Shown one piece after another: positions 12,228 through 57,751 of a stretch of 64,000 bases of DNA. The notes beneath the pieces are model-generated. The model saw nothing but the letters and a program-made list of their open reading frames with translations. It searched no databases and was not told where the DNA came from. Position 1 is the stretch's first letter, and each line of letters opens with the position of its first letter. The position numbers and the translations under genes were made by a program. The stretch comes from an uncultured Gammaproteobacteria bacterium (GTDB lineage: Bacteria > Patescibacteriota > Microgenomatia > Daviesbacterales > UBA10151), in assembly GCA_964405655.1 (NCBI GenBank), contig CAYOOO010000006.1, positions 3,671 to 67,670 of the forward strand, in the 5' to 3' direction.

Positions 12228-14050
12228 TGTGTGGTATTACAGGAATTGTTGACTTCTCCTCCCAACCTAAGAAAACTGCTTTGATTAAGAGTCTTAACAA
12301 GATAACTCATCGTGGTCCTGATTCCTCAGGTTGTTACATTGATAAAAATGTTGCCTTAGGAGTTAGAAGACTAAGTATCATCGACCTTAAGACTGGAGAT
12401 CAACCAATCAGTAACGAGGATAACTTAATAACTATTGTCTTCAATGGCGAGATCTATAATTTTAAGTCACTCCGACAGATGCTTGTTGAAAAGGGTCATA
12501 AATTCAAAACTAAGACTGATACAGAGGTGTTGGTTCATCTTTATGAGGTTTATGGAGATTCTATGATGAAATTTCTTAATGGAATGTTTGCCTTTGCAAT
12601 TTGGGATAAGAAAAAAAATAAACTGTTCATCGGCCGGGATCATGCAGGTATTAAGCCTTTATATTATCTAAAGCAAGGCAGTAAGATTTTTTTTGGCTCT
12701 GAGGTTAAAACAATTTTAAGCTTTTTAAATGGTTCTCCTTCTGTAAATAACGAGTCATTAGCACTGTACACTTTCTTAGGATATATCCCTGGGGATAATT
12801 CTATCTTTGAGGGAATCAAGAAACTTCCCCCAGGACATTATCTGACTTTTGATAAGAATGGTTTAAAATTAGTTAAATATTATCAAGTAAAAATTAATCA
12901 GAAAGCAAAAATAGAGAAGCTGGATGATCTATTGAAAGATGCAGTCAGTCTTCAATCCGTCGCTGATGTACCACTGGGGGTTTTTTTAAGTGGTGGATTA
13001 GATTCATCAATTGTTACCTATTATTTGACTATGCTGAAGCATAATGTTAAGACTTTTTCTATTACTTTTGAAGAAGGTAGTTTTGACGAAAGTGAGTATG
13101 CACTACTTGTTGCTAAAAGGTTGCAAACTAAACACTACCAGGATAGTTTTTCAGTTAACGAAATTCCTAATCTATTTGACAAAATAACCGATCAACTTGA
13201 CGAGCCTTTATCTGATCCTTCACTATTTCCAACATTTAAAGTATCAGCTCTTGCCAAAAAAAACGTTAAAGTTGCCTTAAGTGGAGATGGGGGAGATGAG
13301 CTTTTTGGAGGATATCCAACATATCAAGGACATATTTTGGCAGAAAGATTTAAGTGGATCCCAAAAGCTTTTTTAGATAATTTAACAAAAAGCTTGAAAA
13401 TTCTTCCGAGAACCTTCGAAAACTTTCCTACAAAGGAAGTTTTAACTAGTTTTTTGTTAGGTATATCAAAACCAGCCGCCCAAAGACACATTTTTTGGAT
13501 GAGTCTGTTCTCTCAAGGCCAAAAAGAGCTTTTAGATATCTCTAAAACAAATTGGTATAAAAAAGAAATCTTATCCTTAAAGGGGGAGCAAGAAGATCTC
13601 CTGAAAAAAATGCAGCTTTTAGACTTTAATACTTATTTAGCTGATGATCTTTTAACCAAAGTTGACCGAGCATCAATGATAAACTCACTAGAAGTCAGAG
13701 TCCCTTTTTTAGATCCCAGAATTATTGAATTTGCTTATGGAAGCTCTAAAAATCATGTAGATTTACTTGTAACTAAGAAACATTTGAGAAATCTTTTAAA
13801 GGATCTTTTTCCTAAAAGTATTACCAAAAGGAAGAAAAAAGGCTTTGGCATCCCACTCTCAAAATGGCTTTGTTTTGAGCTAAAAGATTTAGCATATGAT
13901 CATCTAAAAAGCAAAAAATTGAACAACTTTTTTAAACCTACAGTAATTGAACGAGTTTGGAAAAATCATCAGGAAGGTAAAGAAAATAATGCCAAGATTA
14001 TTTGGATGTTGGTGATGTTTAGCAGTTGGTTAAGTAAGTGGAGTAACTAG
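12227..14050 (+). CDS. asnB: Asparagine synthetase (glutamine-hydrolysing) family amidotransferase
   Basis: N-terminal 'MCGITGIV' Ntn amidotransferase nucleophile; 'SGGLDSS' PP-loop ATP pyrophosphatase motif; 607 aa. Confidence 0.85.
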   Translation: MCGITGIVDFSSQPKKTALIKSLNKITHRGPDSSGCYIDKNVALGVRRLSIIDLKTGDQPISNEDNLITIVFNGEIYNFKSLRQMLVEKGHKFKTKTDTEVLVHLYEVYGDSMMKFLNGMFAFAIWDKKKNKLFIGRDHAGIKPLYYLKQGSKIFFGSEVKTILSFLNGSPSVNNESLALYTFLGYIPGDNSIFEGIKKLPPGHYLTFDKNGLKLVKYYQVKINQKAKIEKLDDLLKDAVSLQSVADVPLGVFLSGGLDSSIVTYYLTMLKHNVKTFSITFEEGSFDESEYALLVAKRLQTKHYQDSFSVNEIPNLFDKITDQLDEPLSDPSLFPTFKVSALAKKNVKVALSGDGGDELFGGYPTYQGHILAERFKWIPKAFLDNLTKSLKILPRTFENFPTKEVLTSFLLGISKPAAQRHIFWMSLFSQGQKELLDISKTNWYKKEILSLKGEQEDLLKKMQLLDFNTYLADDLLTKVDRASMINSLEVRVPFLDPRIIEFAYGSSKNHVDLLVTKKHLRNLLKDLFPKSITKRKKKGFGIPLSKWLCFELKDLAYDHLKSKKLNNFFKPTVIERVWKNHQEGKENNAKIIWMLVMFSSWLSKWSN

Positions 14051-14814
14051 CGCTTCTTTGATAAAATTGCCCAGGATATTGAGTTAACTGGAGATATTTT
14101 TAGTATTTCTAATTTATCACTTGTAAAAAGCTTTTTGACCTCTTCTTTTTTCCAGTAATTAGCGATTTTGGGAAGGAGTTGATCTAGGACAATTGTATGG
14201 ATATGCCAAAACCAAAACTGTTTTAACTGAGCCAAATACTCATTTTTTTGGGGAAAGAGCTTAAGATAAAGATAGAATGGAACAGAAAAGAAGTAGGCAA
14301 TCAGATTAGTTATACTTGGAGGAATATGAGAAGTGAAGGCCCTAATAGGGTTAATAAACTTAATTTTCAATTTATTACCCTCATATCCATAAACCCAGCA
14401 AATTAACTTTCCGCCTTTCTTAGTTGCCTTGATTAAATTTTCTATAGCCTTCTTTGGGTTTTCCAGATGGTGTAATACTCCTATACAGATAGTAAGGTCA
14501 AACTCCTCTTTATAGTCGATATCATATATTGATACCCAATCAACCCTGGCATTCTTGAAATTAGCTAAATTTTCTCTTGCCACCTCAACAGTGTGTTTAT
14601 CAACATCAAAGGCAACAACAGATTTTGCCCCGTAATAAAGTGGCCAATAACTATTCCTGCCAGTGCCACAACCAGCATCCAAGACCTTTTTATTTTTGAT
14701 ATTAAGTTTTCTTAAAGGAGTAATCCACTTTAAGAATTGTTGTTCGTAAGCTGGGATTATTTTTGGATAATTGACCCATTCAAAACTAAATCTATCGGCA
14801 GAGCCCATAAACAA
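14047..14814 (-). CDS. Class I SAM-dependent methyltransferase
   Basis: Motif I 'VLDAGCGTGRNS'; sole minus-strand gene inside the long plus-strand array. Confidence 0.7.
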   Translation of the reverse strand: MFMGSADRFSFEWVNYPKIIPAYEQQFLKWITPLRKLNIKNKKVLDAGCGTGRNSYWPLYYGAKSVVAFDVDKHTVEVARENLANFKNARVDWVSIYDIDYKEEFDLTICIGVLHHLENPKKAIENLIKATKKGGKLICWVYGYEGNKLKIKFINPIRAFTSHIPPSITNLIAYFFSVPFYLYLKLFPQKNEYLAQLKQFWFWHIHTIVLDQLLPKIANYWKKEEVKKLFTSDKLEILKISPVNSISWAILSKKR

Positions 14815-14963
14815 GATTTTAACATAATATACTCGTCTAACTCGAGTTTGCAGCTCTCATTAGCTGATTATGTACCAAAAATATTGGTTATAAGTTACAA
14901 ATTAGAGTATTTTGGGTATAAGCCTTCGCATTTTAAATATCAGTTTAGTACAATCAATTTAAG

Positions 14964-16661
14964 TTGACCAGGAAACATTTTTTAGTTCTAGGTTTAATTT
15001 TACTACTGGCTCTTTTTCTACGTGTTTATCAGCTAAACAAAGTACCGATTGAGCTTTTTGGTGATGAGATAGATGTTGGTATTCAAGCTTACTCTATTTT
15101 AAAAACTGGCAAAGATTATTTAGGTAACTCCTTTCCTGTCATGTTTCAGTCTTTTGATGAGAGTAGATTACCCCTTTTAATTTATTCAGCTGTACCTAGT
15201 GTTGCCCTTTTTGGTTTAAATGAATGGGGAGTCAGACTACCTGCCTCAATCTTTGGAGTTCTCTCAGTTGTTGGAATATTTTTAGTTGCAAGGAAGCTTT
15301 TCAATTTTAAAGTAGCTATTATCTCTGCTGTTTTACTTACCATCTCTCCTTGGAATTTACATTATTCAAGATGGTCTAATGATGCCATAAGTTTATTAGG
15401 ACTAGTTTCTTTTGGGACCTATTTCTTTTTACTCGGTTTAAGAAGATTTAGCATCCTTGTTATCTCAGCAATATTTTTCTCCTTAACATTATATGCTTAT
15501 TCAATCTCGGCTGTTTTTCTGCCCCTATTTCTATTACTACTTTTATTTTTATATTGGAAAGATCTAGAGAAAATCTCAAAAACTAAATTAATCTCTTTAG
15601 CTTTTATCTTGATAGTTCTAGTGCTTCCCTACATATATTATTCGATTAATGGTCCAGCTTCTGAAAGATTTTCTAAAATATCCATTTTTGCTGATCAGAA
15701 AATATTGGATAAAGCTACAGAAAGTCAGGCCCAAGATAGCTCTATCTCGACTAAGCTATTTCGAAATAAATTCACCCTTATGTTTAATAAAATTTCAGAA
15801 AATTATATAGAATCTTTCTCTTCTCAGTTTCTTTTCACCAGGGGAGATCCTAACTTTAGACATGCTATTGCAGAGATGGGACAGATGTATTTATTTGAAG
15901 CTCTTTTTCTGATTCTTGGTCTGTCTATCTTTGCTAAAAATATTTATCAAAAAAAAGTATTGGAAAATAAAGAGATAATGTTAATCTTAGGATGGATACT
16001 GATTGCCCCTGTAGCTGCTGCTTTAACTAAAGAAGGTGGAAATCATAATGCCAGGGTGATCTTAATGCTACCTCCACTGGTAATAACTACAGCACTGGGG
16101 ATTCAGTTATTGTTAAGTTTTAGATCTCAACTCAAGTTTAAATTAATATTTGTTTTTATCTCATTTTTGGCCGTTTATAACATCTTTAGTTATTTTTATA
16201 GATACTATAATGAATGGTCTTGGCAAAGTTGGCGTTTCTGGCAATTAGGATATAAAGAAGCAATAACTTATATAAAAGAAAATGAATCCAGTTACAACCG
16301 GATATTTTTCAACAGTACTTATGAACCTGCCTTACCTAGATTTTTATTCTGGTACCAATTTGACCCAAAAGAATTTCAAAAACTTTTTACTGGTAAAGAT
16401 AGAAAGGAGCAATTAGTAAAGGGTTTTAATGGGTTTTCCTTAGGAGATAAATACTATTTTGGGATAGTTTCTAAACTTATCTCAGATCAAGGATTTGTTG
16501 AGCTTTTGGGAAAAGAAGATGTGTACATGGTTAGTCAGAGAGATGAAGTAGGAACAATAGATTGGACTAAAGATCCTCCCAAAGGACTTAATATCTTAAA
16601 AGTGATTTATAATCCCAAACAAGAACCAATCTTTTATATAGTTACTAAAAAGGAGAGTTAA
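14964..16661 (+). CDS. GT-C fold glycosyltransferase, PMT/ArnT-like, tandem paralog family member 1 (TTG start)
   Basis: 'ELFGDEIDVGIQAYSILKTGKDYLGN' DE-loop motif; about 11 TM helices; conserved C-terminal soluble domain 'WSWQSWRFWQLGYKEA'. Confidence 0.7.
   Translation: MTRKHFLVLGLILLLALFLRVYQLNKVPIELFGDEIDVGIQAYSILKTGKDYLGNSFPVMFQSFDESRLPLLIYSAVPSVALFGLNEWGVRLPASIFGVLSVVGIFLVARKLFNFKVAIISAVLLTISPWNLHYSRWSNDAISLLGLVSFGTYFFLLGLRRFSILVISAIFFSLTLYAYSISAVFLPLFLLLLLFLYWKDLEKISKTKLISLAFILIVLVLPYIYYSINGPASERFSKISIFADQKILDKATESQAQDSSISTKLFRNKFTLMFNKISENYIESFSSQFLFTRGDPNFRHAIAEMGQMYLFEALFLILGLSIFAKNIYQKKVLENKEIMLILGWILIAPVAAALTKEGGNHNARVILMLPPLVITTALGIQLLLSFRSQLKFKLIFVFISFLAVYNIFSYFYRYYNEWSWQSWRFWQLGYKEAITYIKENESSYNRIFFNSTYEPALPRFLFWYQFDPKEFQKLFTGKDRKEQLVKGFNGFSLGDKYYFGIVSKLISDQGFVELLGKEDVYMVSQRDEVGTIDWTKDPPKGLNILKVIYNPKQEPIFYIVTKKES
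15024..15241 (+). repeat. 218-bp segment 100% identical to 16719..16936 (copy A, inside paralog 14964..16661)
   Basis: Direct base-by-base comparison of the two regions; flanking bases differ on both sides. Confidence 0.9.
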
Positions 16662-18350
16662 GTGAAGTTTAAACTTTTTTCTTTAGGATTAATACTTTTA
16701 ATAGCTTTAATACTCAGAGTTTATCAGCTAAACAAAGTACCGATTGAGCTTTTTGGTGATGAGATAGATGTTGGTATTCAAGCTTACTCTATTTTAAAAA
16801 CTGGCAAAGATTATTTAGGTAACTCCTTTCCTGTCATGTTTCAGTCTTTTGATGAGAGTAGATTACCCCTTTTAATTTATTCAGCTGTACCTAGTGTTGC
16901 CCTTTTTGGTTTAAATGAATGGGGAGTCAGACTACCAAGCGTCTTCTTTGGGATGCTATCACTGATTGGAATCTATTTATTAACAAGACAGCTTTTTAAC
17001 AGTAAAACTGCCTTATTTGCACTAATACTTCTGGCTATTTCTCCCTGGCATTTACAAATCAGTAGGCAAGCAAATGATGCAACCGTTATCTTACCAGTAA
17101 TGTTATTTGCTATTTGGTTTTTTTTGTTGGGTCTTAAAAGATACTTATTGTTAATAATTTCTGCAATCCTATTTGCCTTAACTTTTTATACTTATGCAAT
17201 TGCTGCAATATTTACTCCTTTAATAGTTATTTGTTTGTCAATACTTTTTTATAGACAGTTTTTAAAGTTAGGTTTGTTAAAAATAACAATGGTTCTGTTA
17301 GTAGGATTTATTATATTACTACCTTATTTAAGTTTATATGTGAGTGGAAAAGCCTCAACTAGATTCTCAACTATTTCAGTCTCCTCGGATAAAGGTATTA
17401 ACGATAAAATATTCACATACCGTAGAAGAGCCGACTCATCCTTTACTCCGCTAATTTACAACAAACCATCTGTTTACTCGGACGAGATTATTAAAAATTA
17501 CCTTAAAGCTTTTTCATCAGAATTTCTATTTGTGATTGGAGATCCTAACTTACGGCATTCAGTCGGAGGATTAGGTGAATTCTACTTATTTACCTTAGCT
17601 GGGTTAATACTAGGGATATTTTTTATTGTCAACAACTTTAATGGAAAGTACAAAACTTCTTTTAAAATTTTGGCTGTCTGCTTAATTTTAGCACCAGTTC
17701 CTGCATCGCTTACTAGAGATGGTGGTTACCATGCTCCCAGATTGTTTTTGTTATTACCATTTCTGGTAATAATTATATCACTTGGTATTAATTATTTAAC
17801 AGGGCTTAAAAGAAATATTTTTATCAAAGGATTATATTTATTAACCGGGTTTCTAATAGTAGTAAATCTAATAGGATATTTTTACAGATATTATATTGAG
17901 TGGTCAAAAGACAGCTGGAGATTCTGGCAGCTAGGATATAAAGAAGCATTGACCTATTTAAAAGAGAATGATTTAAAATATTCAAAGATTTACATTAACA
18001 ATACTTACGAGACTGCCTTGCCCCGATTTCTATTTTGGTATAACTATGATCCTGTTAGGTTTCAGCAAGTTTATCAAGGTAATAAAACAAAGGCTGATAT
18101 AGTTGATGGATTTGAGGGTTTTAAGTTTGATGATAAATATTATTTTGGTACCAAAACTGACAAGAGGATTGAAGATTTAATAGGTGAGAATGAAGTTTAT
18201 CTGGTAAGTTACAGAGATGAAACGGGACTCACAGATTGGAGAAAACAGCCACCTAATGGTTTAAAAGTTTTAAAGACAATTACCAATCCGTTTGACCAAC
18301 CGATATTTTTCATAGTAACCAAAGGAACAACACCGGATAAAAATGAATAA
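16662..18350 (+). CDS. GT-C fold glycosyltransferase, PMT/ArnT-like, tandem paralog family member 2 (GTG start)
   Basis: N-terminal 73 aa identical to the previous gene and then diverging; same TM architecture and C-terminal 'WSKDSWRFWQLGYKEA' domain. Confidence 0.7.
   Translation: MKFKLFSLGLILLIALILRVYQLNKVPIELFGDEIDVGIQAYSILKTGKDYLGNSFPVMFQSFDESRLPLLIYSAVPSVALFGLNEWGVRLPSVFFGMLSLIGIYLLTRQLFNSKTALFALILLAISPWHLQISRQANDATVILPVMLFAIWFFLLGLKRYLLLIISAILFALTFYTYAIAAIFTPLIVICLSILFYRQFLKLGLLKITMVLLVGFIILLPYLSLYVSGKASTRFSTISVSSDKGINDKIFTYRRRADSSFTPLIYNKPSVYSDEIIKNYLKAFSSEFLFVIGDPNLRHSVGGLGEFYLFTLAGLILGIFFIVNNFNGKYKTSFKILAVCLILAPVPASLTRDGGYHAPRLFLLLPFLVIIISLGINYLTGLKRNIFIKGLYLLTGFLIVVNLIGYFYRYYIEWSKDSWRFWQLGYKEALTYLKENDLKYSKIYINNTYETALPRFLFWYNYDPVRFQQVYQGNKTKADIVDGFEGFKFDDKYYFGTKTDKRIEDLIGENEVYLVSYRDETGLTDWRKQPPNGLKVLKTITNPFDQPIFFIVTKGTTPDKNE
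16719..16936 (+). repeat. 218-bp segment 100% identical to 15024..15241 (copy B, inside paralog 16662..18350)
   Basis: Direct comparison. Confidence 0.9.
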
Positions 18351-27430: not shown

Positions 27431-29109
27431 TGGGTATTCCTAAACTCCTCAAATCCCACCTTTTTTTGCTTATATTTCTAATAATTTTAGTTATACCGAC
27501 TTTCAATAGAATGTTTAAGCCTGGTATATTCACCATGCATGATTTTCATGTTTACAGGCTCTATGAATATGATAAATGTATTGCTGATGTTAAATTACCT
27601 TGTAGATGGGCTCCGGATAGCGCTTTTGAGTATGGTGAGCCAGTTTTTAACTACTACGCCCAACTTCCTTATTTATTTGGTGAAGTATTTAGATTTTTGG
27701 GTTTATCAGTTTTAGGCTCAATCAAGGCTTTATTTGTATCCTCTTTAGTATTTTCTGCTCTAGCCATGTTTTTTTTAGCTAGGCAGCTTTGGGGAAATAA
27801 TCTGGCTGCTCTTACTTCTGCTTTGGTTTATACGTATGCTCCTTATAGAGCTGTGGATGTTTGGGTTAGAGGTGCGCTGCCTGAATCTTTAGCATTTATC
27901 TTTTTCCCACTAATAACTTACTTTTTTAATGACTTTGTTTTAAAAAAGAAAACTATCTCACTTTTGCTGTTTGGACTGTCATTTTCAGCTTTGGTTCTAA
28001 CACATAACTTATCGGTATTTATGTTTCTGATTTTCTTTTCAATATGGGCAGTTTACTTTTTAACAAAACATCAAAGCTGGAAATTAGTTCCACAGTTTAT
28101 TGGTGTGGGTATTATAAGTTTTGGGCTGTCTGCTTTCTATATTTTACCAGTGATCTTTGAAAACAAATTAGTTACTTTAACGGAGACAACTGGAGGATAT
28201 TATGATTTTAAAAACCATTATGTCACACTAAATCAGTTGTTAATTTCCAGATATTGGGGTTATGGAGCATCTCTCTGGGGAGAGGATGATAGATTAAGTT
28301 TATCTGTGGGTCATGTCCAATGGGTAATCCCAATATTAATTGCTGTACTAGTTATCTTCAGAAGAAAAATTAAAAACTACTTCAGCTTCTTTGTTCTTTT
28401 TGGTTTAGGTTGGTTTATGTTGTTTTTAACTCATAACAAATCAACACCACTCTGGGACATTTTTGCTCCATTAAGATTTGTCCAATTTCCTTGGAGATTT
28501 TTAGGTTCAGCAGTTTTTATCTTTGCACTTTCGACTGGGGCACTTCTGACTTTGTTTAAAAAACCACTTCTTAATATTTTAATATCATTGATAGTTATCG
28601 GAATAGTTATTGGTTTAAATACTCCTTTTTATTTTGAGGATATTTGGCAGTCATTTGATGATAAACAGTTTTTCTCAGGCAAAAATTACGAAATGCAAGT
28701 GGGCTCAGCAATCTACGATTTTTGGCCCAAAACTGCTGGAAAAGAAGTGCCTTCAACCTTTGCACCCAAAGATCCAATTTTTAAAGAAGGGAGTGGATCA
28801 GGAAAACTGATTGAGAAAAAAAGTCACAGTGCCAAGTACGAGTTAGAGATTAAGAGCAATCAAGCAGAGATTTCTTTCCCCATTGTTTACTTTTCTGGTT
28901 GGGTTGCTTATTCAAATGACCAAAAGTTAGAAATCTATCCAAAAGATAAATATGGACTTATTACTACTAGACTGATTCCTAAGGATAAGATAATAACCTT
29001 AGAATTTAAAGATACCTTAGTTAGACAGATTGGTAATACTCTAACCTTAATTTCACTCTTTACATTTATATCAGTTTTTACTCTTCTTAGAAGAAAAGAA
29101 AAAAAATGA
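27430..29109 (+). CDS. Polytopic membrane protein, stand-alone paralog of the C-terminal domain of 19977..22445 (YfhO-like GT-C candidate)
   Basis: 'MHDFHVYRLYEYDKCIADVKLPCRWAPDSAFEYGEPVFNYYAQLPYLFGE' aligns with 'MHDDLQAMRQLVIDKCFKDGQIPCRWSVDLGYGYGYPLFNFYPPLPYYFGQ'; at least 12 TM helices. Confidence 0.6.
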   Translation: MGIPKLLKSHLFLLIFLIILVIPTFNRMFKPGIFTMHDFHVYRLYEYDKCIADVKLPCRWAPDSAFEYGEPVFNYYAQLPYLFGEVFRFLGLSVLGSIKALFVSSLVFSALAMFFLARQLWGNNLAALTSALVYTYAPYRAVDVWVRGALPESLAFIFFPLITYFFNDFVLKKKTISLLLFGLSFSALVLTHNLSVFMFLIFFSIWAVYFLTKHQSWKLVPQFIGVGIISFGLSAFYILPVIFENKLVTLTETTGGYYDFKNHYVTLNQLLISRYWGYGASLWGEDDRLSLSVGHVQWVIPILIAVLVIFRRKIKNYFSFFVLFGLGWFMLFLTHNKSTPLWDIFAPLRFVQFPWRFLGSAVFIFALSTGALLTLFKKPLLNILISLIVIGIVIGLNTPFYFEDIWQSFDDKQFFSGKNYEMQVGSAIYDFWPKTAGKEVPSTFAPKDPIFKEGSGSGKLIEKKSHSAKYELEIKSNQAEISFPIVYFSGWVAYSNDQKLEIYPKDKYGLITTRLIPKDKIITLEFKDTLVRQIGNTLTLISLFTFISVFTLLRRKEKK

Positions 29110-30716
29110 AAAAATTATTAATTTTTCTAATCATATTATTCATCAGTGTTTTTTTTAGATTTTATAAACTAAATGATTTTCCTCCAAGTTTAAATTGGGA
29201 TGAGGTTTCTTTAGGTTACAACGCCTACTCAATTTTAAAGACTGGCAAAGATGAATGGGGACAGTTTTTACCATTAACCTTTAGAGCTTATGGAGATTAT
29301 AAATTGCCTATTTATATTTATGCAGACGTTCCTTTTGTTGCCCTGTTTGGTTTAAACGAGTGGGGAGTTAGACTCCCTTCTGCTTTAGCAGGATTAGGGA
29401 TTGTGTGTTTAGTTTTTCTAATAATTAAAAAAATAACAGGAAAAAATGATTTAGCACTTTTGGGGATGTTTTTTTCAGCGACATTACCTTGGCTGGTAAT
29501 CTTTTCTAGAATTGCCCTTGAGGCAAATCTAGCACTTCTGTTATTTGTTGCCTCATTTTATTTTTTTATTTTAAGCGAAGAGAAAAAGTACCATCTTATA
29601 ACTTCAGCAGTGCTACTAGGATTATCTTTATTTACTTATAATAGTGCCAGAGTATTGGTTTTACCATTCATAATACTTGTGAGTATACTTTTTTGGAAAT
29701 CGTTTAAAGAAAAATTTAAGTTTTCCTTATTGTCTCTTTTTATCATTATTGCCTTTTTTATTATCGCTTTTCCTCTGGCTATTTTGCAGGACTCGTCTGC
29801 TAGATACAGATGGACCACAATTTTAGATGAAGGAGCTATACAAAGAATCAATGAATTAAGAGGGTCTTCAGCACTACCGCCAATTGCTTCTAAGCTGGCA
29901 TTTAATAAATTGACTTATTTTATTCCTGAGGCTTTTAAAAACTATTTGACTCACTTTAATGCTGATTTTTTATTCCTTAATGGTGGATCGAATTATCAAT
30001 ACTCAGTTCCAGGTAGTGGTTTAGCTCCAATCGTCTTACTCCCCTTGCTAATTTTAGGAATTTTTCAAGTTTTTAGGAAAAAAACAAAATGGCAATATTT
30101 AGTTTTGGGTTGGTTGCTTCTGGCGCCAACACCAGCTGCTATTACTAGAGATGCACCTCACGCATTGAGAACTATTTTTATGAGTGTACCGCTGATAATA
30201 ATTTCCTCCTTAGGTGTTCTATTTATAATTGAGAATTTAAAAATAAAAAAAGTTTTTGTTTATTCCTTTCTTCTAGCAGCAGTACTTATTACTACAACTA
30301 GTTTCTGGATTAACTATACAAAAGTTTATACCAAAAAATATTCCTGGTCATGGCAGTATGGATATAAGCAAGTAATAAATTTTATAAATAAGCAAGGTAA
30401 TAACTATGACAAGATCTACCTTAGTAAAAAGTATGGTGAACCACATGAATTCTTATTGTTTTACTTAAAATATGATCCAAATAAGTATAGGAACGATTCT
30501 AAATTAATTAGATATAAGCGTTCAGATTGGTATTGGGTAGATCAATTTGATAGGTTTGAATTTATAAATGACTGGGAAGTAACTGAAAAAGTTAAAATTA
30601 AAACTGGCAAAGACTTGTTAATAACCAGCCCCGGAAATTACCCAGTTAAAGCTAAGCTAATTAACAGAATCAAATTTCTGGATGGGCAAGATGCTTTTGA
30701 TATTGTTGAACTATGA
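29106..30716 (+). CDS. GT-C fold glycosyltransferase, PMT/ArnT-like, paralog family member 4
   Basis: 'SLNWDEVSLGYNAYSILKTGKDEWGQFLPL...FGLNEWGVRLPSALAG'. Confidence 0.7.
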   Translation: MKKLLIFLIILFISVFFRFYKLNDFPPSLNWDEVSLGYNAYSILKTGKDEWGQFLPLTFRAYGDYKLPIYIYADVPFVALFGLNEWGVRLPSALAGLGIVCLVFLIIKKITGKNDLALLGMFFSATLPWLVIFSRIALEANLALLLFVASFYFFILSEEKKYHLITSAVLLGLSLFTYNSARVLVLPFIILVSILFWKSFKEKFKFSLLSLFIIIAFFIIAFPLAILQDSSARYRWTTILDEGAIQRINELRGSSALPPIASKLAFNKLTYFIPEAFKNYLTHFNADFLFLNGGSNYQYSVPGSGLAPIVLLPLLILGIFQVFRKKTKWQYLVLGWLLLAPTPAAITRDAPHALRTIFMSVPLIIISSLGVLFIIENLKIKKVFVYSFLLAAVLITTTSFWINYTKVYTKKYSWSWQYGYKQVINFINKQGNNYDKIYLSKKYGEPHEFLLFYLKYDPNKYRNDSKLIRYKRSDWYWVDQFDRFEFINDWEVTEKVKIKTGKDLLITSPGNYPVKAKLINRIKFLDGQDAFDIVEL

Positions 30717-32368
30717 ATTGGATTAGAAAAAACTATCTAATTTTAGTAATTCTGATAATTGCTGCAGTTTTAAGACTTTGGAATATATCAAAAGTTCCTC
30801 CTGGTTTAACTTGGGATGAAGCAGCCTTAGGATATAACTCCTATTCGTTGCTTCTTACAGCTAAAGATGAATATGGGAATTTTTTACCACTAAACCTGAA
30901 GTCCTTTGGTGATTATAAACCCGCTTTTTATTCTTATATCGATATTCCATTTGTTGCCCTACTGGGACTTAATGAACTGGCAGTAAGGCTTCCTTCAGTA
31001 CTTGCTGGTGTTGGCCTTGTATTGGTGGTCTATCTTTTAATCATAGAACTTTTTGGAAATCTTAGGCTTGCTCAACTGGTAGCCTTTATGTTAACAATCT
31101 CACCTCTAGCTATCCAGTTTTCCAGAGTGGCAATTGAATCAAATCTGGCTCTGTTTCTAAATGCACTTGCAACTTATTTCTTTATCAAAGCTAGAAAGAG
31201 TGGATATCTTTATCTGATCTCAGTCTTGCTATTTAGTTTTTCTCTATTTACTTATCAGGCTTCTAGACTGTTTGTACCCATGCTAATACTGGGACTTTTA
31301 TTAGTTTTTAGAAAACAGATAAAGTTAGGTAAGTGGTTAATTGGAGCAGGAACTACCTTAGTGATATTCTTATTTATTTTAGTTTACTCAACTTTTACTC
31401 TAAAACAGTCTGACAGACTGGTTGCAATGAACTTTTTTGCTTATCGTCGTTCTAGTGAGGAAATAAACTTAGTTAGCAAAGAGGATAGTTTAAACAAAGA
31501 TTCTCTAACATTTCAAATTTTGCATGGCGAGTGGTTTACTTATCTTCGGGGACTGACTGAAAGGTATCTGATTTATTTCTCACCAAGAATGCTTTTTATT
31601 GACGGTGATTATAATCCACGTCATCGGGTTCCTGATTTAGGTGTTTTATATTACTTTTCTGCAGTTTTAATCCCCCTAGGAATTATTTGCCTTTTTAAAT
31701 TAAAAAATACAGGCAGTCAACTAGTTTTACTTTGGTTGTTAATTGCTCCACTTCCCGCTGTACTATCTAGAGATTTAATTACATTTTTAAGAGCTTTTAA
31801 TTTAACCCTGCCTTACAGCGTCCTAGAAGGAGCAGGTCTCTATTATCTACTCACCTTAATCTTAAGTAAAAAAAGATCGCTCTTTTTACCTACTCTGGGA
31901 ATAGTCGGGTTTGTAATTCTTGTAAACCTATTTGTCTATTTAGATAGATTTTATGTGCATATGCCAAAACAATATTCACAGGGTTGGTTATATGGTTATC
32001 GTGAAGTTTTCAATGACCTTAAAACAAGAACTGACCTTAATAAATATAATAAGGTAGTTATGACTGATAAATACGGTCAACCCTATATTTATTACCTTTT
32101 CTATACTAAGTACCTCCCCCAAAATTTTCAGAAGCAGGCTAAACTAGATCAACCAACAGTTGATGTTGGGACAGTCAGAAGTATCGATAATATTGAATTT
32201 AGACATGTATATTGGCCAAAGGATCGCGGAGAAACAAACAGCTTATTTATAGGAAGCCTAGAAGAATTACCTGATCAAGATACCAAACCCTTCTCTGAGT
32301 ATAAGATTTTAAATGATTATTATTTTCTTGATGGACAGCATGCTTTTAGAGTTCTTGAATCAAAATGA
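30713..32368 (+). CDS. GT-C fold glycosyltransferase, PMT/ArnT-like, paralog family member 5
   Basis: 'GLTWDEAALGYNSYSLLLTAKDEYGNFLPL...LGLNELAVRLPSVLAG'. Confidence 0.7.
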   Translation: MNWIRKNYLILVILIIAAVLRLWNISKVPPGLTWDEAALGYNSYSLLLTAKDEYGNFLPLNLKSFGDYKPAFYSYIDIPFVALLGLNELAVRLPSVLAGVGLVLVVYLLIIELFGNLRLAQLVAFMLTISPLAIQFSRVAIESNLALFLNALATYFFIKARKSGYLYLISVLLFSFSLFTYQASRLFVPMLILGLLLVFRKQIKLGKWLIGAGTTLVIFLFILVYSTFTLKQSDRLVAMNFFAYRRSSEEINLVSKEDSLNKDSLTFQILHGEWFTYLRGLTERYLIYFSPRMLFIDGDYNPRHRVPDLGVLYYFSAVLIPLGIICLFKLKNTGSQLVLLWLLIAPLPAVLSRDLITFLRAFNLTLPYSVLEGAGLYYLLTLILSKKRSLFLPTLGIVGFVILVNLFVYLDRFYVHMPKQYSQGWLYGYREVFNDLKTRTDLNKYNKVVMTDKYGQPYIYYLFYTKYLPQNFQKQAKLDQPTVDVGTVRSIDNIEFRHVYWPKDRGETNSLFIGSLEELPDQDTKPFSEYKILNDYYFLDGQHAFRVLESK

Positions 32369-33975
32369 AAATTAAGGCTTTCCTAATTTTAGTAATTATC
32401 TTGGCAGCAATTTTAAGACTTTGGGACTTAACAAACTATCCAGCTGGCTTTAATGCGGATGAGGCAAGTATCGGTTACAATGCTTATTCTATTTTAAAAA
32501 CAGGTAGGGATGAATACGGACAGTTCTTACCTCTTAACTTCAAGTCTTTTGGAGACTATAAACCAGGTTTGTATTTCTATTTTGTCATCCCATTTATTTG
32601 GCTCCTGGGTTTAGCTGAATTTGCAGTCAGACTACCCTCAGCAATCTTAGGAATTGCAACAGTTTATTTAATTTATTTTTTATCAAAACAGATATTTAAC
32701 AATAAAAATATCGCTCTGTTATCAGCTTTTCTTTTAGCTATTACACCTTGGCATATTCATTTTTCCAGAGGTGGTTGGGAATCTAATGCTGCTACATTTT
32801 TTATAACACTTGGTTTCCTACTATTTCTCAAAGGTTTAGAAAAAGCCAATTTTTTATTTTGGAGTTTACTTAGTTTTCTGATTTCAATTTATTTATATCA
32901 AAGTCCAAGATTATTAGTCCCCCTCTTTTTAATTAGCTTAATATTTCTTTACAATAGACATCTTTTAAAGAAACTAAAAAATTTAACCATCTTTATTCCA
33001 ATTTTATTTATACTTTCTCTACCGCTTTTTGGTGAATTTTTAACTGGTCAAGGAGCTGCTAGATTCTCAGGCTTATCTTTTTTATCTGATCCGGGTCCAG
33101 GATCAAGAACAAATGAGTTACGTGGCCAACATTTAAATCCAAGTTCCCTATATTCAATTATTTTACATAACAAATTTACTTCATACGGTCCAAGTTTCTT
33201 AGGTCATTACTTAGACCATTTCTCATCTCAGTTCCTATTTATTAGGGGGGAGGACGTTATTAGAAATAAAGTTCCCGAAACAGGCCAATTTTATCTAGTC
33301 CAGGCAATGTTTCTAATATTGGGGATAATGTATCTTACAAGATCTAAATTAGAACATAAAAAACTTTTACTTGCTTGGTTAATTATTTCTCCGACTGCTT
33401 CAGCAATGACTTTTCAAACACCGAATGCTTTAAGGTCACTAAACATGGTAATACCTTTTAGTTTGATTATGGGAGTAGGTTTATACTATCTTATTACGAT
33501 CACTAAAAAAAAGCTTCGGTTTTTGATTGCTTTTATAATATTTTTCATACTTGGATTTGAGGTTATCCACTATTTAGAGTCATATTATATGCACTATCCT
33601 AAAAGATATCCTTTAGCTTGGGAATATGGATTTAAACAAATGGTTAGCAAATTATCTATCAAGCAACCGCTATATAATAATGTAGTTATTACAGATCGTT
33701 ACGATCAACCCTACATACTCCTGCTCTTTTATCAAAAGTTTGATCCTGTCAAATATCAACCTCAAGCCAGGCTCTCTATAAGAGACAAGTTTAATTTTGG
33801 GACTATTAGATCTTTTGATAAATACCAGTTTAGACAAATTGACCCTAAGGAGATCAAAAATGCTAAAGATACCTTGTTTATAGGTAGCGAAAAAGAGATC
33901 CCAAAAGATGCTAATATTATCGATAGAGTTGACTTTCCGAATGGTCAACCAGCCTTTTTATTTGTCGGAACATAA
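32365..33975 (+). CDS. GT-C fold glycosyltransferase, PMT/ArnT-like, paralog family member 6
   Basis: 'GFNADEASIGYNAYSILKTGRDEYGQFLPL...LGLAEFAVRLPSAILG'. Confidence 0.7.
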   Translation: MKIKAFLILVIILAAILRLWDLTNYPAGFNADEASIGYNAYSILKTGRDEYGQFLPLNFKSFGDYKPGLYFYFVIPFIWLLGLAEFAVRLPSAILGIATVYLIYFLSKQIFNNKNIALLSAFLLAITPWHIHFSRGGWESNAATFFITLGFLLFLKGLEKANFLFWSLLSFLISIYLYQSPRLLVPLFLISLIFLYNRHLLKKLKNLTIFIPILFILSLPLFGEFLTGQGAARFSGLSFLSDPGPGSRTNELRGQHLNPSSLYSIILHNKFTSYGPSFLGHYLDHFSSQFLFIRGEDVIRNKVPETGQFYLVQAMFLILGIMYLTRSKLEHKKLLLAWLIISPTASAMTFQTPNALRSLNMVIPFSLIMGVGLYYLITITKKKLRFLIAFIIFFILGFEVIHYLESYYMHYPKRYPLAWEYGFKQMVSKLSIKQPLYNNVVITDRYDQPYILLLFYQKFDPVKYQPQARLSIRDKFNFGTIRSFDKYQFRQIDPKEIKNAKDTLFIGSEKEIPKDANIIDRVDFPNGQPAFLFVGT

Positions 33976-33979
33976 ATAA

Positions 33980-34840
33980 ATGACTAAATTGTCTGTCACT
34001 ATAGCTACTTTTAATGAAGAAGAAAACATAAAGAGTTGTTTAAAAACTGTTAAAGATATTGCCGATGAAATTGTGGTAGTTGATGGGGGATCGGTTGATC
34101 GCACAGTAGAGATCGCTAAAGAATTTAATGCAAAAGTTACAGTTACGGATAATCCCCCCAACTTTCATATTAATAAACAAAAAGCTAATGATTTGGCAGA
34201 AAACGATTGGATCTTACAACTTGATGCAGATGAACGGGTTACTGCTACACTTGATAGAGAGATAAAAAATGTCATTAGAATGGGGGTAGAGGAATTAGAA
34301 GATTACCAAGCATCTTTAAAGAATAAAAAACTTTTTTTAAGGCACCAAAAACTGCTTGAGGAAAGAGATGGAAAAATAGGAATAGATCAAGGAGAATTTG
34401 TGGCTTTTTTTGTTCCAAGGGCAAATTACTTCTTGGGAAAATACTTAAGATATGGGGGAGTTTATCCTGATGGAGTGATCCGTCTATTTAAGAAGGATAA
34501 GGCGTTTTTACCCTGTAAAAGTGTCCATGAACAGTACCAAGTTGATGGTAGAGTTGGTTGGTTGCAAAATAACCTACTTCATATCGATTCACCGACATTC
34601 AAACGTTATTTACAAAGAAACAACCGATATATTAGCTTGATTGTTAGAGATTTGGCTAGAGAACGAGTGAAAAAAAATATTTGGCAACTTTTAAATTATT
34701 GTTTAATCAAACCAGTTTGGTGGTTTATAAAAACTCAACTAATTCACAAAGGAATATTGGATGGGATACCGGGGGTAATTTTCTCTTTTTTCTCTGCCTT
34801 GAGATTCCCAAGGGCTTACATTAAATATTTATTAACATGA
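33980..34840 (+). CDS. Glycosyltransferase family 2 (WaaE-like paralog)
   Basis: 'LSVTIATFNEEENIKSCLKTVKDIADEIVVVDGGSVDRT', 'LDADE'. Confidence 0.75.
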   Translation: MTKLSVTIATFNEEENIKSCLKTVKDIADEIVVVDGGSVDRTVEIAKEFNAKVTVTDNPPNFHINKQKANDLAENDWILQLDADERVTATLDREIKNVIRMGVEELEDYQASLKNKKLFLRHQKLLEERDGKIGIDQGEFVAFFVPRANYFLGKYLRYGGVYPDGVIRLFKKDKAFLPCKSVHEQYQVDGRVGWLQNNLLHIDSPTFKRYLQRNNRYISLIVRDLARERVKKNIWQLLNYCLIKPVWWFIKTQLIHKGILDGIPGVIFSFFSALRFPRAYIKYLLT

Positions 34841-35889
34841 GTAAGATCAAAGTTGGTTTAGATATTAGTAGAATGAATCCTTTAAGTCTTAATAGAGGAA
34901 TTGGCTACTATACTAGGAATCTTTTTGAATCTCTCAAAAACATAAGTAACCTTGAGGTTTTATTGATAGAGGATCAAAATCAGATTAGGGAAGATTTAGA
35001 TCTAATTCACTACCCATTTTTTGATTTTTTTTCATCTACCTTACCACTCAAAAAAAGTTCACCAACAATAGTTACTATCCATGATGTTACTCCTTTAGTT
35101 TTTCCTAAACATTACCCCGCAGGCATTAAGGGTAGGATTAATTTAGAGAGACAAAAATTATCACTTAGATCAGTTAAAGCTGTAATTACTGATTCTCTTT
35201 CTTCTAAGTTTGATATTAAAAAAACTTTAAAAGTTGCAGAAGATAAGATTTTTCCAATTTATCTTGCGCCGGCTAAGAAATTTAAATCAATAGATGATCA
35301 ACAAAGATTAAAACTGGTCAAAATCAAATATGACCTTCCGGAATCTTTTGCATTATTTGTTGGCAATATTAACTGGAATAAGAATTTGTTGAATTTAACG
35401 GAGGGTTGTTTGGACAGCGGAACTGATCTCGTTTTGGTAGGTAGCGCATTCGGAACCAGAAATAGCCTTTCTCATCCAGAACTTGCCAGTTTCAAATTAT
35501 GGCTAGAAAAATATTCAACTAATCCGAAAGTGCATATACTGGACAACTATCCAGAGGATGAAATTGTGGAAATTTATAATATTGCCAATGTTTTGCTCCT
35601 TCTGTCTTTTTATGAAGGATTCGGGTTGACAATTCTTGAGGCACAAGCTTGTGGTACACCTGTAATTACAAGTAACACATCTTCTATGCCAGAAGTTGCA
35701 GGTGAAGGTGCGGCTTTGGTTGACCCTGAAAATGTTAATGAAATAAGTAGCGCTATTGAAAGCATTATTTCAAATAAATCCCTAAAAGAAAATTTTATGA
35801 AAAGAGGATTTAAAAACATCAAAAGATTTTCTTGGGATAAAACTGCTCTTTTAACTGCAGAAGTTTATGAAAGAGTTCTTAATAGTTAA
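34837..35889 (+). CDS. Glycosyltransferase family 4
   Basis: 'EGFGLTILEAQACGTPVITS' GT4 signature. Confidence 0.7.
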   Translation: MSKIKVGLDISRMNPLSLNRGIGYYTRNLFESLKNISNLEVLLIEDQNQIREDLDLIHYPFFDFFSSTLPLKKSSPTIVTIHDVTPLVFPKHYPAGIKGRINLERQKLSLRSVKAVITDSLSSKFDIKKTLKVAEDKIFPIYLAPAKKFKSIDDQQRLKLVKIKYDLPESFALFVGNINWNKNLLNLTEGCLDSGTDLVLVGSAFGTRNSLSHPELASFKLWLEKYSTNPKVHILDNYPEDEIVEIYNIANVLLLLSFYEGFGLTILEAQACGTPVITSNTSSMPEVAGEGAALVDPENVNEISSAIESIISNKSLKENFMKRGFKNIKRFSWDKTALLTAEVYERVLNS

Positions 35890-37015
35890 AACGCTGGTTG
35901 TTTTTTTCTTCACCTGGAGAGTTAGTTTATTCATAGTTAGCCTTGTGGCTACTTTAGTCATAGTAAAATTTGGTGCCAGATTTCCTTATTATAACGAGAT
36001 TTTGGTAAGCACAGGACTTCCCTCATGGATTTGGGGATTTGGTAATTTTGATGGCGTCCATTATTTAAATATCGCAAAATCAGGATACTCCGCCCAATTT
36101 ACTCAAGTTTTTTTCCCTTTATTTCCAATGTTGATAAATTTTTTTAATTTCTTTCAAAATTACTTCCTAACAGGATTGCTTATTGCAAATCTATTCTTTC
36201 TTCTCTCCATTATTTCTCTATATAAATTATTTAGGTTAGATTTCGATAAAGATATTAGTTTAAAAGCTGTAATTCTTTTGTTAACATTTCCAACTGCCTT
36301 TTATTTTGGTGCTATCTATTCGGAATCATTATTTTTGTTGTTATCAGTTCTGGCTTTTTATCTGCTTCGGAAGAAAGAATTCTTTCTTTCTGGGGTATTT
36401 ATTGCCCTAGCTACAGCTACCAGAATATTTGGGATTCTTTTGGTGATTGCTTATATTATAGAATTTTATTATGCAGTTAAAGAAAGACAGATTAAATTTA
36501 TAACATTACAGGCAGTTAAACCTCTACTCGGTTTACTGATTTCTCCATTAGGTCTAATTACCTATATGGCCTATCTCAAAATAAATTTTAATGATCCCTT
36601 ATATTTTTTAAATGCTCAACCTATTTTTGGAGCTGAAAGAACCAATCTCCCTTTTGTCTTATTGCCACAGGTAATTTTTAGATATATAAAAATTCTTCTA
36701 AGTATAAACGTCTTATCTTTACCTTTTTTAAATGCCCTACTTGAACTTATATTTACTCTTATTCCTTTATTTTCATTAATTTTTATCTTTAAAAAAATCA
36801 GATTTAGTTACTGGGTATTTTCCTTTAGTTGTCTGATATTACCTACACTAACAGGAACTCTTTCATCGATGCCCCGGTACTCATTGATGATGTTCTTATC
36901 ACTCCCACTTATTGCTATTCTAGTTAAAAGAAATATATGGATTTTATATTTAACCTTCACACTTATCCAAGCTGTATTATTAACTTTATTTATTAGAGGC
37001 TACTGGGTGGCTTAG
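35867..37015 (+). CDS. Polytopic integral membrane protein (possible mannosyltransferase-like GT-C/DUF2029-type)
   Basis: 382 aa, about 10 TM helices, no soluble domain; assignment by architecture only. Confidence 0.4.
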   Translation: MKEFLIVKTLVVFFFTWRVSLFIVSLVATLVIVKFGARFPYYNEILVSTGLPSWIWGFGNFDGVHYLNIAKSGYSAQFTQVFFPLFPMLINFFNFFQNYFLTGLLIANLFFLLSIISLYKLFRLDFDKDISLKAVILLLTFPTAFYFGAIYSESLFLLLSVLAFYLLRKKEFFLSGVFIALATATRIFGILLVIAYIIEFYYAVKERQIKFITLQAVKPLLGLLISPLGLITYMAYLKINFNDPLYFLNAQPIFGAERTNLPFVLLPQVIFRYIKILLSINVLSLPFLNALLELIFTLIPLFSLIFIFKKIRFSYWVFSFSCLILPTLTGTLSSMPRYSLMMFLSLPLIAILVKRNIWILYLTFTLIQAVLLTLFIRGYWVA

Positions 37016-46321: not shown

Positions 46322-46322
46322 A

Positions 46323-51007: not shown

Positions 51008-51027
51008 TTAGCTCATATTAAAAACTA

Positions 51028-51055: not shown

Positions 51056-51066
51056 GATCAAGACTT

Positions 51067-53057: not shown

Positions 53058-53122
53058 GCCCGATAATACTTAAATAATTATCCTTGTGTCAATAGCTATG
53101 AGATTATATAATTCCCCCAGTT

Positions 53123-57733: not shown

Positions 57734-57751
57734 TATCTAAAAATTGTAACT

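Follow-up and report, generated by a model that had tools for sequence, protein, structure and literature searches.

We analysed a 64-kb stretch of DNA (64,000 nucleotides of contig CAYOOO010000006.1, hereafter the window) that carries an array of predicted membrane glycosyltransferases (GTs) of the GT-C superfamily, among them six paralogs of the Pfam PMT_2 family. The window is AT-rich, with a GC content of 0.30-0.38, and its genes are dense and co-directional, with frequent overlaps of 4-8 nt. It contains 54 open reading frames (ORFs) of at least 150 amino acids, and family scans were run on the 50 of them that had no obvious function by eye; the remaining four were read by eye as a short-chain dehydrogenase/reductase (SDR, 55428-56258), an aldehyde dehydrogenase (56243-57733), a transketolase-like protein (57752-59668) and a kinase-like protein (60298-61371). 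B1, one of the six paralogs, has a 100% identical public counterpart, encoded on a 75-kb contig; its closest named relatives are 54-62% identical to it and are annotated as Candidatus Daviesbacteria or Microgenomates group. By these comparisons the organism is an uncultured, Daviesbacteria-like member of the Microgenomates group, within the Candidate Phyla Radiation, whose members have minimal genomes, are thought to be attached to hosts and have an envelope chemistry that is nearly unexplored.

The six paralogs, and a tract common to two of them, are as follows.

14964-16661, plus strand: A1, 565 amino acids; PF13231 48.6 bits; orthogroup A1
16662-18350, plus strand: A2, 562 amino acids; PF13231 60.3 bits; lineage-specific duplicate of A1, with which it clusters
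18343-19968, plus strand: A3, 541 amino acids; PF13231 42.3 bits, PF02366 27.9 bits; orthogroup A3/o1, second slot of the array
29106-30716, plus strand: B1, 536 amino acids; PF02366 41.1 bits; most conserved orthogroup (82 of 82 loci)
30713-32368, plus strand: B2, 551 amino acids; PF13231 36.2 bits, PF02366 33.6 bits; orthogroup B2
32365-33975, plus strand: B3, 536 amino acids; PF13231 41.4 bits, PF02366 35.4 bits; orthogroup B3
15024-15241 and 16719-16936, plus strand: tract of 218 nt with 100% identity between A1 and A2

An earlier reading of the letters alone (the sequence-only reading) had placed six GT-C paralogs here, and the scans agree with it: all six are full-length, lie on the plus strand, show 28-53% identity and exceed the Pfam gathering threshold of PMT_2 (PF13231, 26.1 bits), with 36.2-60.3 bits. 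The threshold of PMT (PF02366, 22.7 bits) is exceeded by A3, B1, B2 and B3, as well as by C7, a more distant protein of the window described below; the PF02366 scan gave no match for A1 or A2. Pairwise BLASTP aligned the six over nearly their full length at 28-38% identity (E 1e-46 to 1e-110; 53% for A1 and A2), a similarity far beyond chance. B2 overlaps both B1 and B3 by 4 nt. A crude hydropathy count, which gave overlapping segments, was used only to confirm a polytopic N-terminal part and a hydrophilic C-terminal part.

The loop-1 motif that had been ascribed to all six is exact in A3, B1 and B3, slightly altered in B2 (SLLLTAKDEYG) and more varied in A1 and A2 (GDEIDVGIQAYSILKTGKDYLG), while the Asp-Glu (D-E) pair and FGLNEWGVRLP-like text are indeed kept in every copy. 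The identical tract of A1 and A2 includes all of catalytic loop 1 (Asp-Glu pair through GLNEWGVRLP), and beyond it the two genes are about 55% identical in DNA; the tract reflects either a recent gene conversion or an assembly chimera.

The family is large, with 6,904 cluster representatives at 50% identity for E <= 1e-30 and 38,440 for E <= 1e-3. Its members are annotated publicly as 'glycosyltransferase family 39' or 'phospholipid carrier-dependent glycosyltransferase', so that the assignment of the proteins to glycosyltransferases is not new.

Conservation, fold and divergence of the paralogs

A scan of one genome per species returned at least 569 relatives, of which the best 80 loci were examined. 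Together with the window, L001 and its near-duplicate L002 they form the 83 sequences in which copies were counted with the family hidden Markov model: nearly all loci have three to seven copies no more than 10 kb from their B1 ortholog. Five copies were counted in 24 sequences, while 17 sequences have six, 16 have four and 9 have seven. After removal of L002, 82 loci with 363 full-length members were used for orthogroup clustering. The orthogroups comprise B1 (82 members), B3 (68), B2 (63), A1/A2 (56) and A3 taken together with a sister cluster that fills its slot (10+46); B1 is present in all 82 loci, B3 in 68, B2 in 63 and A1 in 51 (56 members). The commonest order in the 82 loci is A1, A3-slot gene, B1, B2, B3. 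Gene order and partners were further counted in the 42 related loci of at least 20 kb, where the consensus is GT2d, A1, GT87-like, A3, an optional YfhO-like gene, B1, B2, B3, GT2e, GT4b, PIG-V-like, MOP flippase, PpgS-like and DUF2304. Across Microgenomates-group genomes this core locus holds up to eight GT-C genes, and several unassigned neighbours inspected in related loci are further PMT_2- or YfhO-type proteins, or a polytopic protein of no assigned family.

By these comparisons there are five ancient orthogroups, and the array is an ancestral, conserved feature of the lineage rather than a local expansion, with A2 as the only recent, lineage-specific copy. The sequence-only reading had described an expanded array, and as a local amplification this does not hold, since the five orthogroups keep the same order in most of the 82 loci. 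Its two triplets are correctly placed, but both belong to one ancestral array that is split in the window by a heptose cassette between two YfhO-type genes. It had also proposed a co-occurrence analysis across related genomes, and the recurrence of the ordered array in most of the 82 loci is its outcome. A promoter and terminator scan of 14001-34000 gave counts not above shuffled expectation, which says nothing on operon boundaries.

Among the 80 loci, those with a specific name are mainly labelled Daviesbacteria, Woesebacteria, Shapirobacteria, Amesbacteria, Blackburnbacteria or Microgenomates group; other labels are Parcubacteria (one), Saccharibacteria (two) and Clostridia (one). Many records with a Microgenomates-type locus (L003-L082) are titled 'uncultured Gammaproteobacteria bacterium', and one 'Clostridia bacterium'. 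We treated the Gammaproteobacteria title as a placeholder because those loci have 40-62% identity and gene order in common with named ones; judging from these sequences, the taxonomy in such Gammaproteobacteria and Clostridia titles, which come from bulk depositions of genomes, is probably wrong or a placeholder. Closed genomes with the locus include CP066688.1, CP011214.1, CP066693.1, OZ246397.1 and OZ246419.1.

In Daviesbacteria loci the A1-type gene is preceded on its 5' side by a gene for a conserved polytopic membrane protein (765-2810 in L004) whose C-terminal part is soluble and which matches no Pfam family; similar ORFs of about 680 amino acids occur in L001 and L005. The Daviesbacteria loci may hold still more GT-C-like enzymes that escape recognition.

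Our literature search found no publication that describes the five-orthogroup array or an operon with up to eight GT-C genes. In one Microgenomates genome 29 glycosyltransferase genes have been remarked on, and nothing more (PMC7143001), and Microgenomates-enriched membrane families have been listed as hypothetical (PMC6744442). The novelty would lie at the level of the conserved five-orthogroup array and operon; the underlying type, extracytoplasmic glycosylation via polyprenyl-phosphate sugars, is known.

For structural comparison, B1 was aligned with the five other paralogs of the window and 37 orthologs and modelled with AlphaFold2 (predicted local distance difference test, pLDDT, 92.1; predicted TM-score, pTM, 0.91). 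The model has a polytopic helical core up to about residue 411, followed past the last membrane helix by an alpha/beta domain (about residues 412-536), which corresponds to the C-terminal soluble domain of the sequence-only reading. In a Foldseek search of the PDB, ArnT ranked first (E 4.5e-8, TM 0.56), followed by STT3, AglB, PglB, Pmt4, ALG9 and Emb. The structural match of B1 to ALG12, ArnT, AglB/STT3 and Pmt is about equal, the scores of ALG12, ArnT and AglB being equal to or higher than those of the PMTs. The polytopic core thus matches solved enzymes of the GT-C superfamily (fold class GT-C_A).

At the sequence level the family profile reached a single solved protein, ArnT of C. metallidurans (E 2.9e-5, chain residues 88-248), and hhalign of the family against Escherichia coli ArnT gave a probability of 9% over 64 columns, which is no full-length similarity. 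For this reason we rejected the filing of the family under GT83 (ArnT). Neither a Pfam STT3 match nor the combination of STT3 profile and WWDYG motif that marks GT66 was found in the paralogs. A W-x-Y-G-Y/F-K motif right after the last membrane helix recalls the WWDYG of oligosaccharyltransferases (OSTs), and this WxYGY/WWDYG resemblance was also dropped: a profile of the last membrane helices and C-terminal domain, built from 25 diverse members, found no PDB sequence even at E <= 10. Judged by sequence, then, the paralogs are not demonstrable members of GT83 or GT66; with the model, they are placed as GT-C_A enzymes within the PMT_2 clan, at roughly the same distance from each characterised family.

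Eight residues (D32, E33, D49, R89, R135, Y178, R233 and R355, numbered as in B1) are conserved across all orthogroups, none of them in fewer than 97% of the 363 members. The loop-1 pair itself is kept in 99% (D32) and 100% (E33), and both residues are present in the six window paralogs and C7. Because this catalytic set is so widely kept, no paralog looks like a dead enzyme. The PMT_2 thresholds passed, the Asp-Glu pair and the modelled GT-C fold together bear out the membership that the sequence-only reading had left to profile searches.

A strict search for orthogroup-specific residues returned three sites only, and a regional analysis based on entropy was used in its place. Loop 1 has the lowest within-group entropy of all regions. 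Between orthogroups, divergence is highest in the outer loop EL4 (residues 231-310; 0.77 bits) and in the C-terminal domain (412-536; 0.67 bits), against 0.23-0.48 bits in the membrane segments. Such a pattern would be expected for a common donor and catalytic site with diverged acceptor recognition, and it fits the earlier idea of acceptor-specific paralogs.

Other genes of the window

The genes that accompany the six paralogs are listed below.

2414-3973, plus strand: C7, distant PMT_2/PMT-type GT-C beside the flippase; PF13231 39.1 bits, PF02366 30.2 bits
3973-5400, plus strand: MOP (Wzx-type) flippase; PF13440 196.5 bits, NF007773 172 bits
9129-10466, plus strand: GT87/ALG6-like polytopic protein, probable GT-C; PF09594 23.7 bits and PF03155 22.1 bits, both just below threshold
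10459-11253, plus strand: GT2d, conserved cytoplasmic GT2 (Pfam) at the array head; in 26 of 42 long loci
11265-12227, plus strand: ArnC/GtrB-type polyprenyl-phosphate sugar synthase with C-terminal membrane helices; full-length matches to ArnC (9hwj, 149 bits) and GtrB (5ekp, 130 bits)
19977-22445, plus strand: fusion of a GT2 polyprenyl-phosphate sugar synthase (residues 1-245) with a YfhO/PTPS_related-type GT-C (residues 258-822), from Pfam and AlphaFold2
22442-27386, mixed strands with one reverse ORF: GDP-heptose cassette of HddA-like kinase, GmhA-like SIS isomerase, HddC-like nucleotidyltransferase, GmhB-like phosphatase and epimerase/dehydratase
27430-29109, plus strand: YfhO-like GT-C directly 5' of B1, with a 4-nt overlap; PF09586 32.4 bits
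33980-34840 and 34837-35889 (block 33980-35889), plus strand: GT2e and GT4b, conserved cytoplasmic partners (Pfam)
35867-37015, plus strand: PIG-V/PMT_2-like GT-C; PF04188 36 bits, PF13231 32 bits
37059-37736 and 37733-38104 (block 37059-38104), plus strand: PpgS/DPMS-like GT2 (NF058614) and its DUF2304 membrane partner (PF10066)

On these assignments the window would encode eleven GT-C proteins in about 35 kb. Seven had been named by the sequence-only reading, which missed the four at 9129-10466, 19977-22445 (C-terminal part), 27430-29109 and 35867-37015. Its seventh, divergent copy, C7, passes both Pfam thresholds and matches the family profile with an hhalign probability of 93.9% over 328 columns, with marginal BLASTP similarity; it was found in none of the 42 long loci and is not part of the conserved array. 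The GT87-like gene occurs in 30 of these 42 loci and the PIG-V-like gene, after which the MOP flippase comes, in 29. The YfhO-like slot before B1 is occupied in 21 of the 82 loci, and its product in the window is 33% identical to the C-terminal part of the fusion protein 19977-22445. The best-conserved partner is GT2e, which lies directly 3' of B3 in 42 of 42 long loci, at 55% identity, with GT4b in 37 of 42; the best solved relatives of GT2e are GmaR and SunS, over its N-terminal half only. The GT2 paralogs at 5481-6392, 7306-8109 and 33980-34840 are 28-32% identical to one another.

The three Dpm1/GtrB-like synthases proposed earlier (11265, the N-terminal domain of 19977, and 37059) have ArnC, GtrB and DPMS as best solved relatives. 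The synthase at 11265-12227 scores 179 bits against the NCBIfam ArnC model, below its cutoff. For the domain of 19977, ArnC, GtrB and DPMS are the best relatives both by sequence and by structure. The GT2 at 37059-37736 scores 143 bits against the PpgS model NF058614, below cutoff, with archaeal DPMS (5mlz, 75.9 bits) as best solved match, and its DUF2304 partner scores 90 bits against PF10066; in mycobacteria the corresponding pair is PpgS/Rv3632. The Wzx-type flippase at 3973-5400 was likewise recovered, and phosphoglycosyltransferase (PGT) families (Bac_transf, MraY/WecA type) had no match among the 50 scanned ORFs, in line with the description of the window as lacking a PGT. An AsnB-type amidotransferase lies 3' of the ArnC/GtrB-like synthase (11265-14050 for the two). 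The same pair stands directly 5' of the A1-type gene in L071, and an AsnB-type gene stands there in L076; the pairing may point to an amidated sugar donor.

In its AlphaFold2 model (pLDDT 86.5) the fusion protein 19977-22445 starts with a GT-A domain, from which a flexible linker leads to a membrane core; a beta-sandwich follows, and the last element is a membrane helix. Fused proteins of this kind, about 800-840 amino acids long, are found across at least 36 protein clusters; the C-terminal part also has orthologs that stand unfused. C301 and C309 are invariant, in the first loop past the first membrane helix, which suggests a disulfide on the outer face. In-frame fusions of YfhO-like and B1-type PMT_2 proteins were found as well (P0236, 1060 amino acids; P0225, 766 amino acids); they could be a Rosetta-stone hint of coupling or an artefact of frameshift or gene calling. 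An A3-type protein, P0215, has a C-terminal extension that by eye resembles a staphylococcal-nuclease domain.

The GDP-D-glycero-D-manno-heptose cassette sits exactly between the two YfhO-type genes, where it splits the array, and was found in none of the 42 long related loci. Being GDP-activated and of manno configuration, GDP-heptose might, as a speculation, feed the Dpm1-like domain of 19977.

Further downstream, within a run of GT4 genes, 46284-47798 encodes an orphan protein of 504 amino acids, polytopic in the membrane and soluble in its C-terminal part. Pfam and NCBIfam gave no match for it, it has no relation to the family profile, and among 5.8 billion proteins only its own fragment matches; it may be another GT-C or a polymerase. 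The GC content rises to 0.34-0.38 in 50000-63400. On its minus strand this region encodes a NeuB-family synthase (62293-63393) and a CMP-sugar-type cytidylyltransferase (52281-53057); it also carries two APH-type kinases and HAD phosphatases, besides the kinase-like (60298-61371), transketolase-like, aldehyde dehydrogenase and SDR ORFs read by eye, and by its gene content it looks like a separate pathway for nonulosonic acid or another unusual sugar, possibly acquired.

Proposed function and alternatives

Our preferred explanation, to which we give a probability of about 0.6, is that the six ORFs encode active ArnT/PMT (Pfam PMT_2)-type GT-Cs, and that the conserved operon, with its GT87-, YfhO- and PIG-V-like GT-Cs, its GT2 and GT4 enzymes and its MOP flippase, builds a glycoconjugate of the envelope step by step on the outer side of the membrane. 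What was observed, as described above, is the family and fold, the conserved residues, the synteny, the synthase types and the fusions; donor sugars, order of action, acceptor and product are what we infer. On the cytoplasmic face, GT2 synthases would load polyprenyl phosphate with single sugars, the candidates being 11265, the N-terminal domain of 19977, and 37059 with its DUF2304 partner, and the lipid-linked sugars would then be flipped to the outer face. There each GT-C would bind a lipid-phosphate sugar via conserved Arg, Lys and Tyr residues (R89, R135, Y178, R233, R355) and would use the Asp32-Glu33 pair of loop 1 for inverting transfer onto a specific acceptor hydroxyl. With a common donor and catalytic core, and with differences in EL4 and the C-terminal domain, each orthogroup would probably have its own linkage or acceptor position.

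The acceptor in this scheme would be a lipid-anchored glycan or wall polymer, begun by GT4/GT2 on a membrane lipid and not by a PGT. We prefer such an acceptor to a protein because a MOP flippase and cytoplasmic GT2/GT4 enzymes lie in the same operon, and because the substrates of characterised GT87, PIG-V and YfhO enzymes are glycolipids or teichoic acids; a start on a membrane lipid also fits the window, since no PGT was found in it. The fusions (synthase/GT-C in 19977, YfhO/B1 in P0236 and P0225) suggest that donor synthesis and use are physically coupled. By analogy, the proposed assembly would resemble the steps of mycobacterial lipomannan/lipoarabinomannan (LM/LAM) synthesis or the lumenal ALG steps.

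Several points weigh against this explanation. The NCBIfam matches of all the synthases lie below the equivalog cutoffs and thus do not fix the sugar that each loads, and a PGT may be encoded elsewhere in the genome, the window covering 64 kb of it. A polymerase or ligase (Wzy, WaaL, LCP) or a small GtrA/SMR-type flippase was not recognised in the window; for small flippases (GtrA, SMR, MATE) this holds for the scanned ORFs of at least 150 amino acids, those below 100 amino acids lying outside the scan, and the DUF2304 protein and the MOP flippase are present. The members of the family are known from sequence alone and the organisms that carry them are uncultured. Finally, a protein acceptor is equally compatible at the enzyme level, because PF02366 is above threshold in four of the six paralogs and the loop-1 Asp-Glu pair, a PMT hallmark, is present.

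This last point leads to an alternative that we regard as possible, if on the doubtful side, in which the array is a battery for protein O-glycosylation: each orthogroup would place a polyprenyl-phosphate sugar on the Ser/Thr residues of its own class of surface or secreted proteins, such as pilins, S-layer proteins, sortase substrates or the linkers of secreted hydrolases. Parallels would be PMT1/2/4, TMTC1-4 and TMEM260 in eukaryotes and the single GT39 enzymes of Actinobacteria and Caldicellulosiruptor. The PF02366 matches of A3, B1, B2, B3 and C7 and the invariant Asp-Glu pair speak for it, and the route needs no PGT. GT2e points weakly in the same direction, as its nearest solved relatives, GmaR and SunS, modify proteins or peptides (N-terminal half only). 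There is also precedent in Cbes_1864 of Caldicellulosiruptor, a bacterial GT39 enzyme of 556 amino acids needed for glycosylation of secreted cellulases (PMC6151902), and sortase and pili are near-ubiquitous in Microgenomates (PMC6744442). However, protein O-glycosylation leaves unexplained the conserved MOP flippase, the cytoplasmic GT4/GT2 enzymes and the GT87-, PIG-V- and YfhO-type GT-Cs of the same operon. The bacterial Pmt systems that have been characterised rely on a single enzyme and not on five colinear orthogroups, and ALG12, ArnT and AglB match the fold as well as or better than PMTs. Nor was a candidate acceptor protein found in the window or the flanks examined, where the inspected neighbours are polytopic membrane proteins.

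Neighbouring paralogs could also act as subunits within hetero-oligomeric GT-C complexes, of the kind seen in Pmt1-Pmt2 and EmbA-EmbB; the gene count would then mirror the make-up of the complexes and not how many different reactions take place. This would fit either acceptor, and we hold it to be rather unlikely. B1, B2 and B3 lie head to tail with 4-nt overlaps in a near-universal order, but overlaps are usual throughout the compact window and so do not discriminate. The in-frame YfhO-type/B1-type fusions P0236 and P0225 would agree with physical association, but they have the possible artefactual origin given above. The embCAB operon and the PMT heterodimers are precedents for hetero-complexes, and both structures are among the fold matches, whereas the full catalytic residue set, kept in all orthogroups, speaks against them.

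An ArnT-like charge modification, in which an aminosugar is placed on a membrane lipid or teichoic acid against cationic antimicrobial peptides, is very improbable: ArnT is the one solved protein that the sequence profile reached and it ranks first in Foldseek, and an ArnC-like synthase lies at 11265, but against E. coli ArnT the profile gives a very weak match (9%), the scanned ORFs contain no ArnA/ArnB/ArnD-type families (formyltransferase/decarboxylase, aminotransferase, deformylase) and so no association with 4-amino-4-deoxy-L-arabinose (Ara4N), a Gram-positive-like envelope (PMC6744442) presumably offers no lipid A acceptor, and a resistance add-on is not expected as five colinear orthogroups in such small genomes. 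We give equally little credence to one or more paralogs being an OST for en bloc transfer of a finished lipid-linked glycan (as STT3, PglB and AglB do), for which the WWDYG-like text (WQYGYK, WLYGYR, WEYGFK) and the MOP flippase could be cited, but which is opposed by the profile results given above (no Pfam STT3 match, no solved structure reached by the C-terminal region, ArnT alone by the whole protein), by the lack of the W-x-Y-G-Y/F-K motif in A3 and by a D-E signature in loop 1, as in PMT and ArnT.

Our preferred explanation remains a glycoconjugate of the envelope that is put together step by step outside the membrane. A bolder form of it, improbable as it stands and drawn by analogy, is that an operon of about 20 kb with up to eight GT-Cs (the five PMT_2 orthogroups in fixed order and the GT87-, YfhO- and PIG-V-like ones), kept by all Microgenomates-group bacteria in their genomes of about 1 Mb, would be an undescribed line that builds a complex lipid-anchored glycan wholly outside the membrane from polyprenyl-phosphate sugars, like the ALG and glycosylphosphatidylinositol (GPI) pathways of the endoplasmic reticulum (ER) lumen or like LAM; the anchor could be a scavenged host lipid, and the glycan would serve these presumed episymbionts as their main surface determinant. 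If the product did come from a lipoglycan assembly line comparable to that of LAM or the ER lumen, the interest of the array would rise. About 35 kb given largely to GT-Cs, with five paralog types in fixed order in the related lineages sampled, implies a complex surface glycoconjugate under strong selection, and the finding defines a concrete gene set open to experiment. A series of paralogs with one catalytic core and different outer domains is also useful for the question of how GT-Cs choose their acceptors.

Comparison with known systems

ArnT (GT83; PDB 5EZM/5F15) resembles the paralogs in length, about 540 amino acids, in its polytopic N-terminal part followed by an outer soluble C-terminal domain, and in an FG-x-N-x-(W/F)-GVR segment past loop 1. 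It takes a polyprenyl-phosphate monosaccharide donor made by an ArnC-type GT2, and such a GT2 is present in the window too. In contrast, identity in the structural alignment is only 10-12%, next to the 9% hhalign probability against the E. coli protein, and the scanned ORFs of the window contain no recognised Ara4N genes beyond the ArnC-like GT2. Furthermore, ArnT is one gene as against five colinear orthogroups, and the host envelope is Gram-positive-like, so that a lipid A acceptor is not expected (PMC6744442).

The GT39 PMTs (yeast Pmt1/2/4, actinobacterial Pmt and Cbes_1864) have in common with the paralogs the Asp-Glu pair, the Pfam PMT match in four of six and, for Cbes_1864, a length of 556 amino acids. 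Unlike them, the window paralogs have no MIR domain, A1 and A2 fall below the PF02366 threshold, and the genes lie in an operon with a flippase, GT4, GT2 and other GT-C families, whereas the characterised bacterial Pmt is single.

Three-component glycosylation systems (GtrA/GtrB/Gtr*; CsbB/GtcA/YfhO; Citrobacter ORF15/14/12, PMC11127046) likewise have a GT2 synthase that supplies a lipid-phosphate sugar to an outer GT-C. Their synthase component has counterparts in 11265, the N-terminal domain of 19977 and 37059, and YfhO-type GT-Cs are present in the window. Yet those systems add one side-chain sugar with one GT-C, whereas here no more than three recognisable synthases stand beside 8-11 GT-Cs (eleven in the window as counted above), and one synthase is itself fused to its presumed GT-C; a GtrA-, SMR- or MATE-type flippase was not recognised among the scanned ORFs of at least 150 amino acids.

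The mycobacterial set for phosphatidylinositol mannosides (PIM), LM/LAM and arabinogalactan comprises PimA/B (GT4), Ppm1 (GT2), PimE and MptC (GT87), MptA/B, embCAB, AftA-D and PpgS-Rv3632-Rv3779. Here the likeness extends to the cytoplasmic GT4/GT2 enzymes, the polyprenyl-phosphate sugar synthases, the many serial outer-face GT-Cs, the tandem GT-C paralogs (embCAB) and the PpgS-like GT2 with a DUF2304 partner. With lipid initiation as in PIM/LM/LAM, a PGT would not be needed. The window lineage nevertheless belongs to the Candidate Phyla Radiation, not to Actinobacteria, and its GT-Cs are PMT_2-type, not Emb/Aft/Mpt; the likeness is one of enzyme types, not of demonstrated orthology.

The lumenal ALG3/9/12 and ALG6/8/10 enzymes of the ER belong to a eukaryotic pathway and are 7-10% identical to the paralogs, and no OST was identified in the window. 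Taken as an analogy, the resemblance would be one of logic, not of demonstrated descent: in the ER, too, paralogous GT-Cs act one after another on a flipped lipid-linked oligosaccharide, which they lengthen with sugars taken from dolichyl phosphate.

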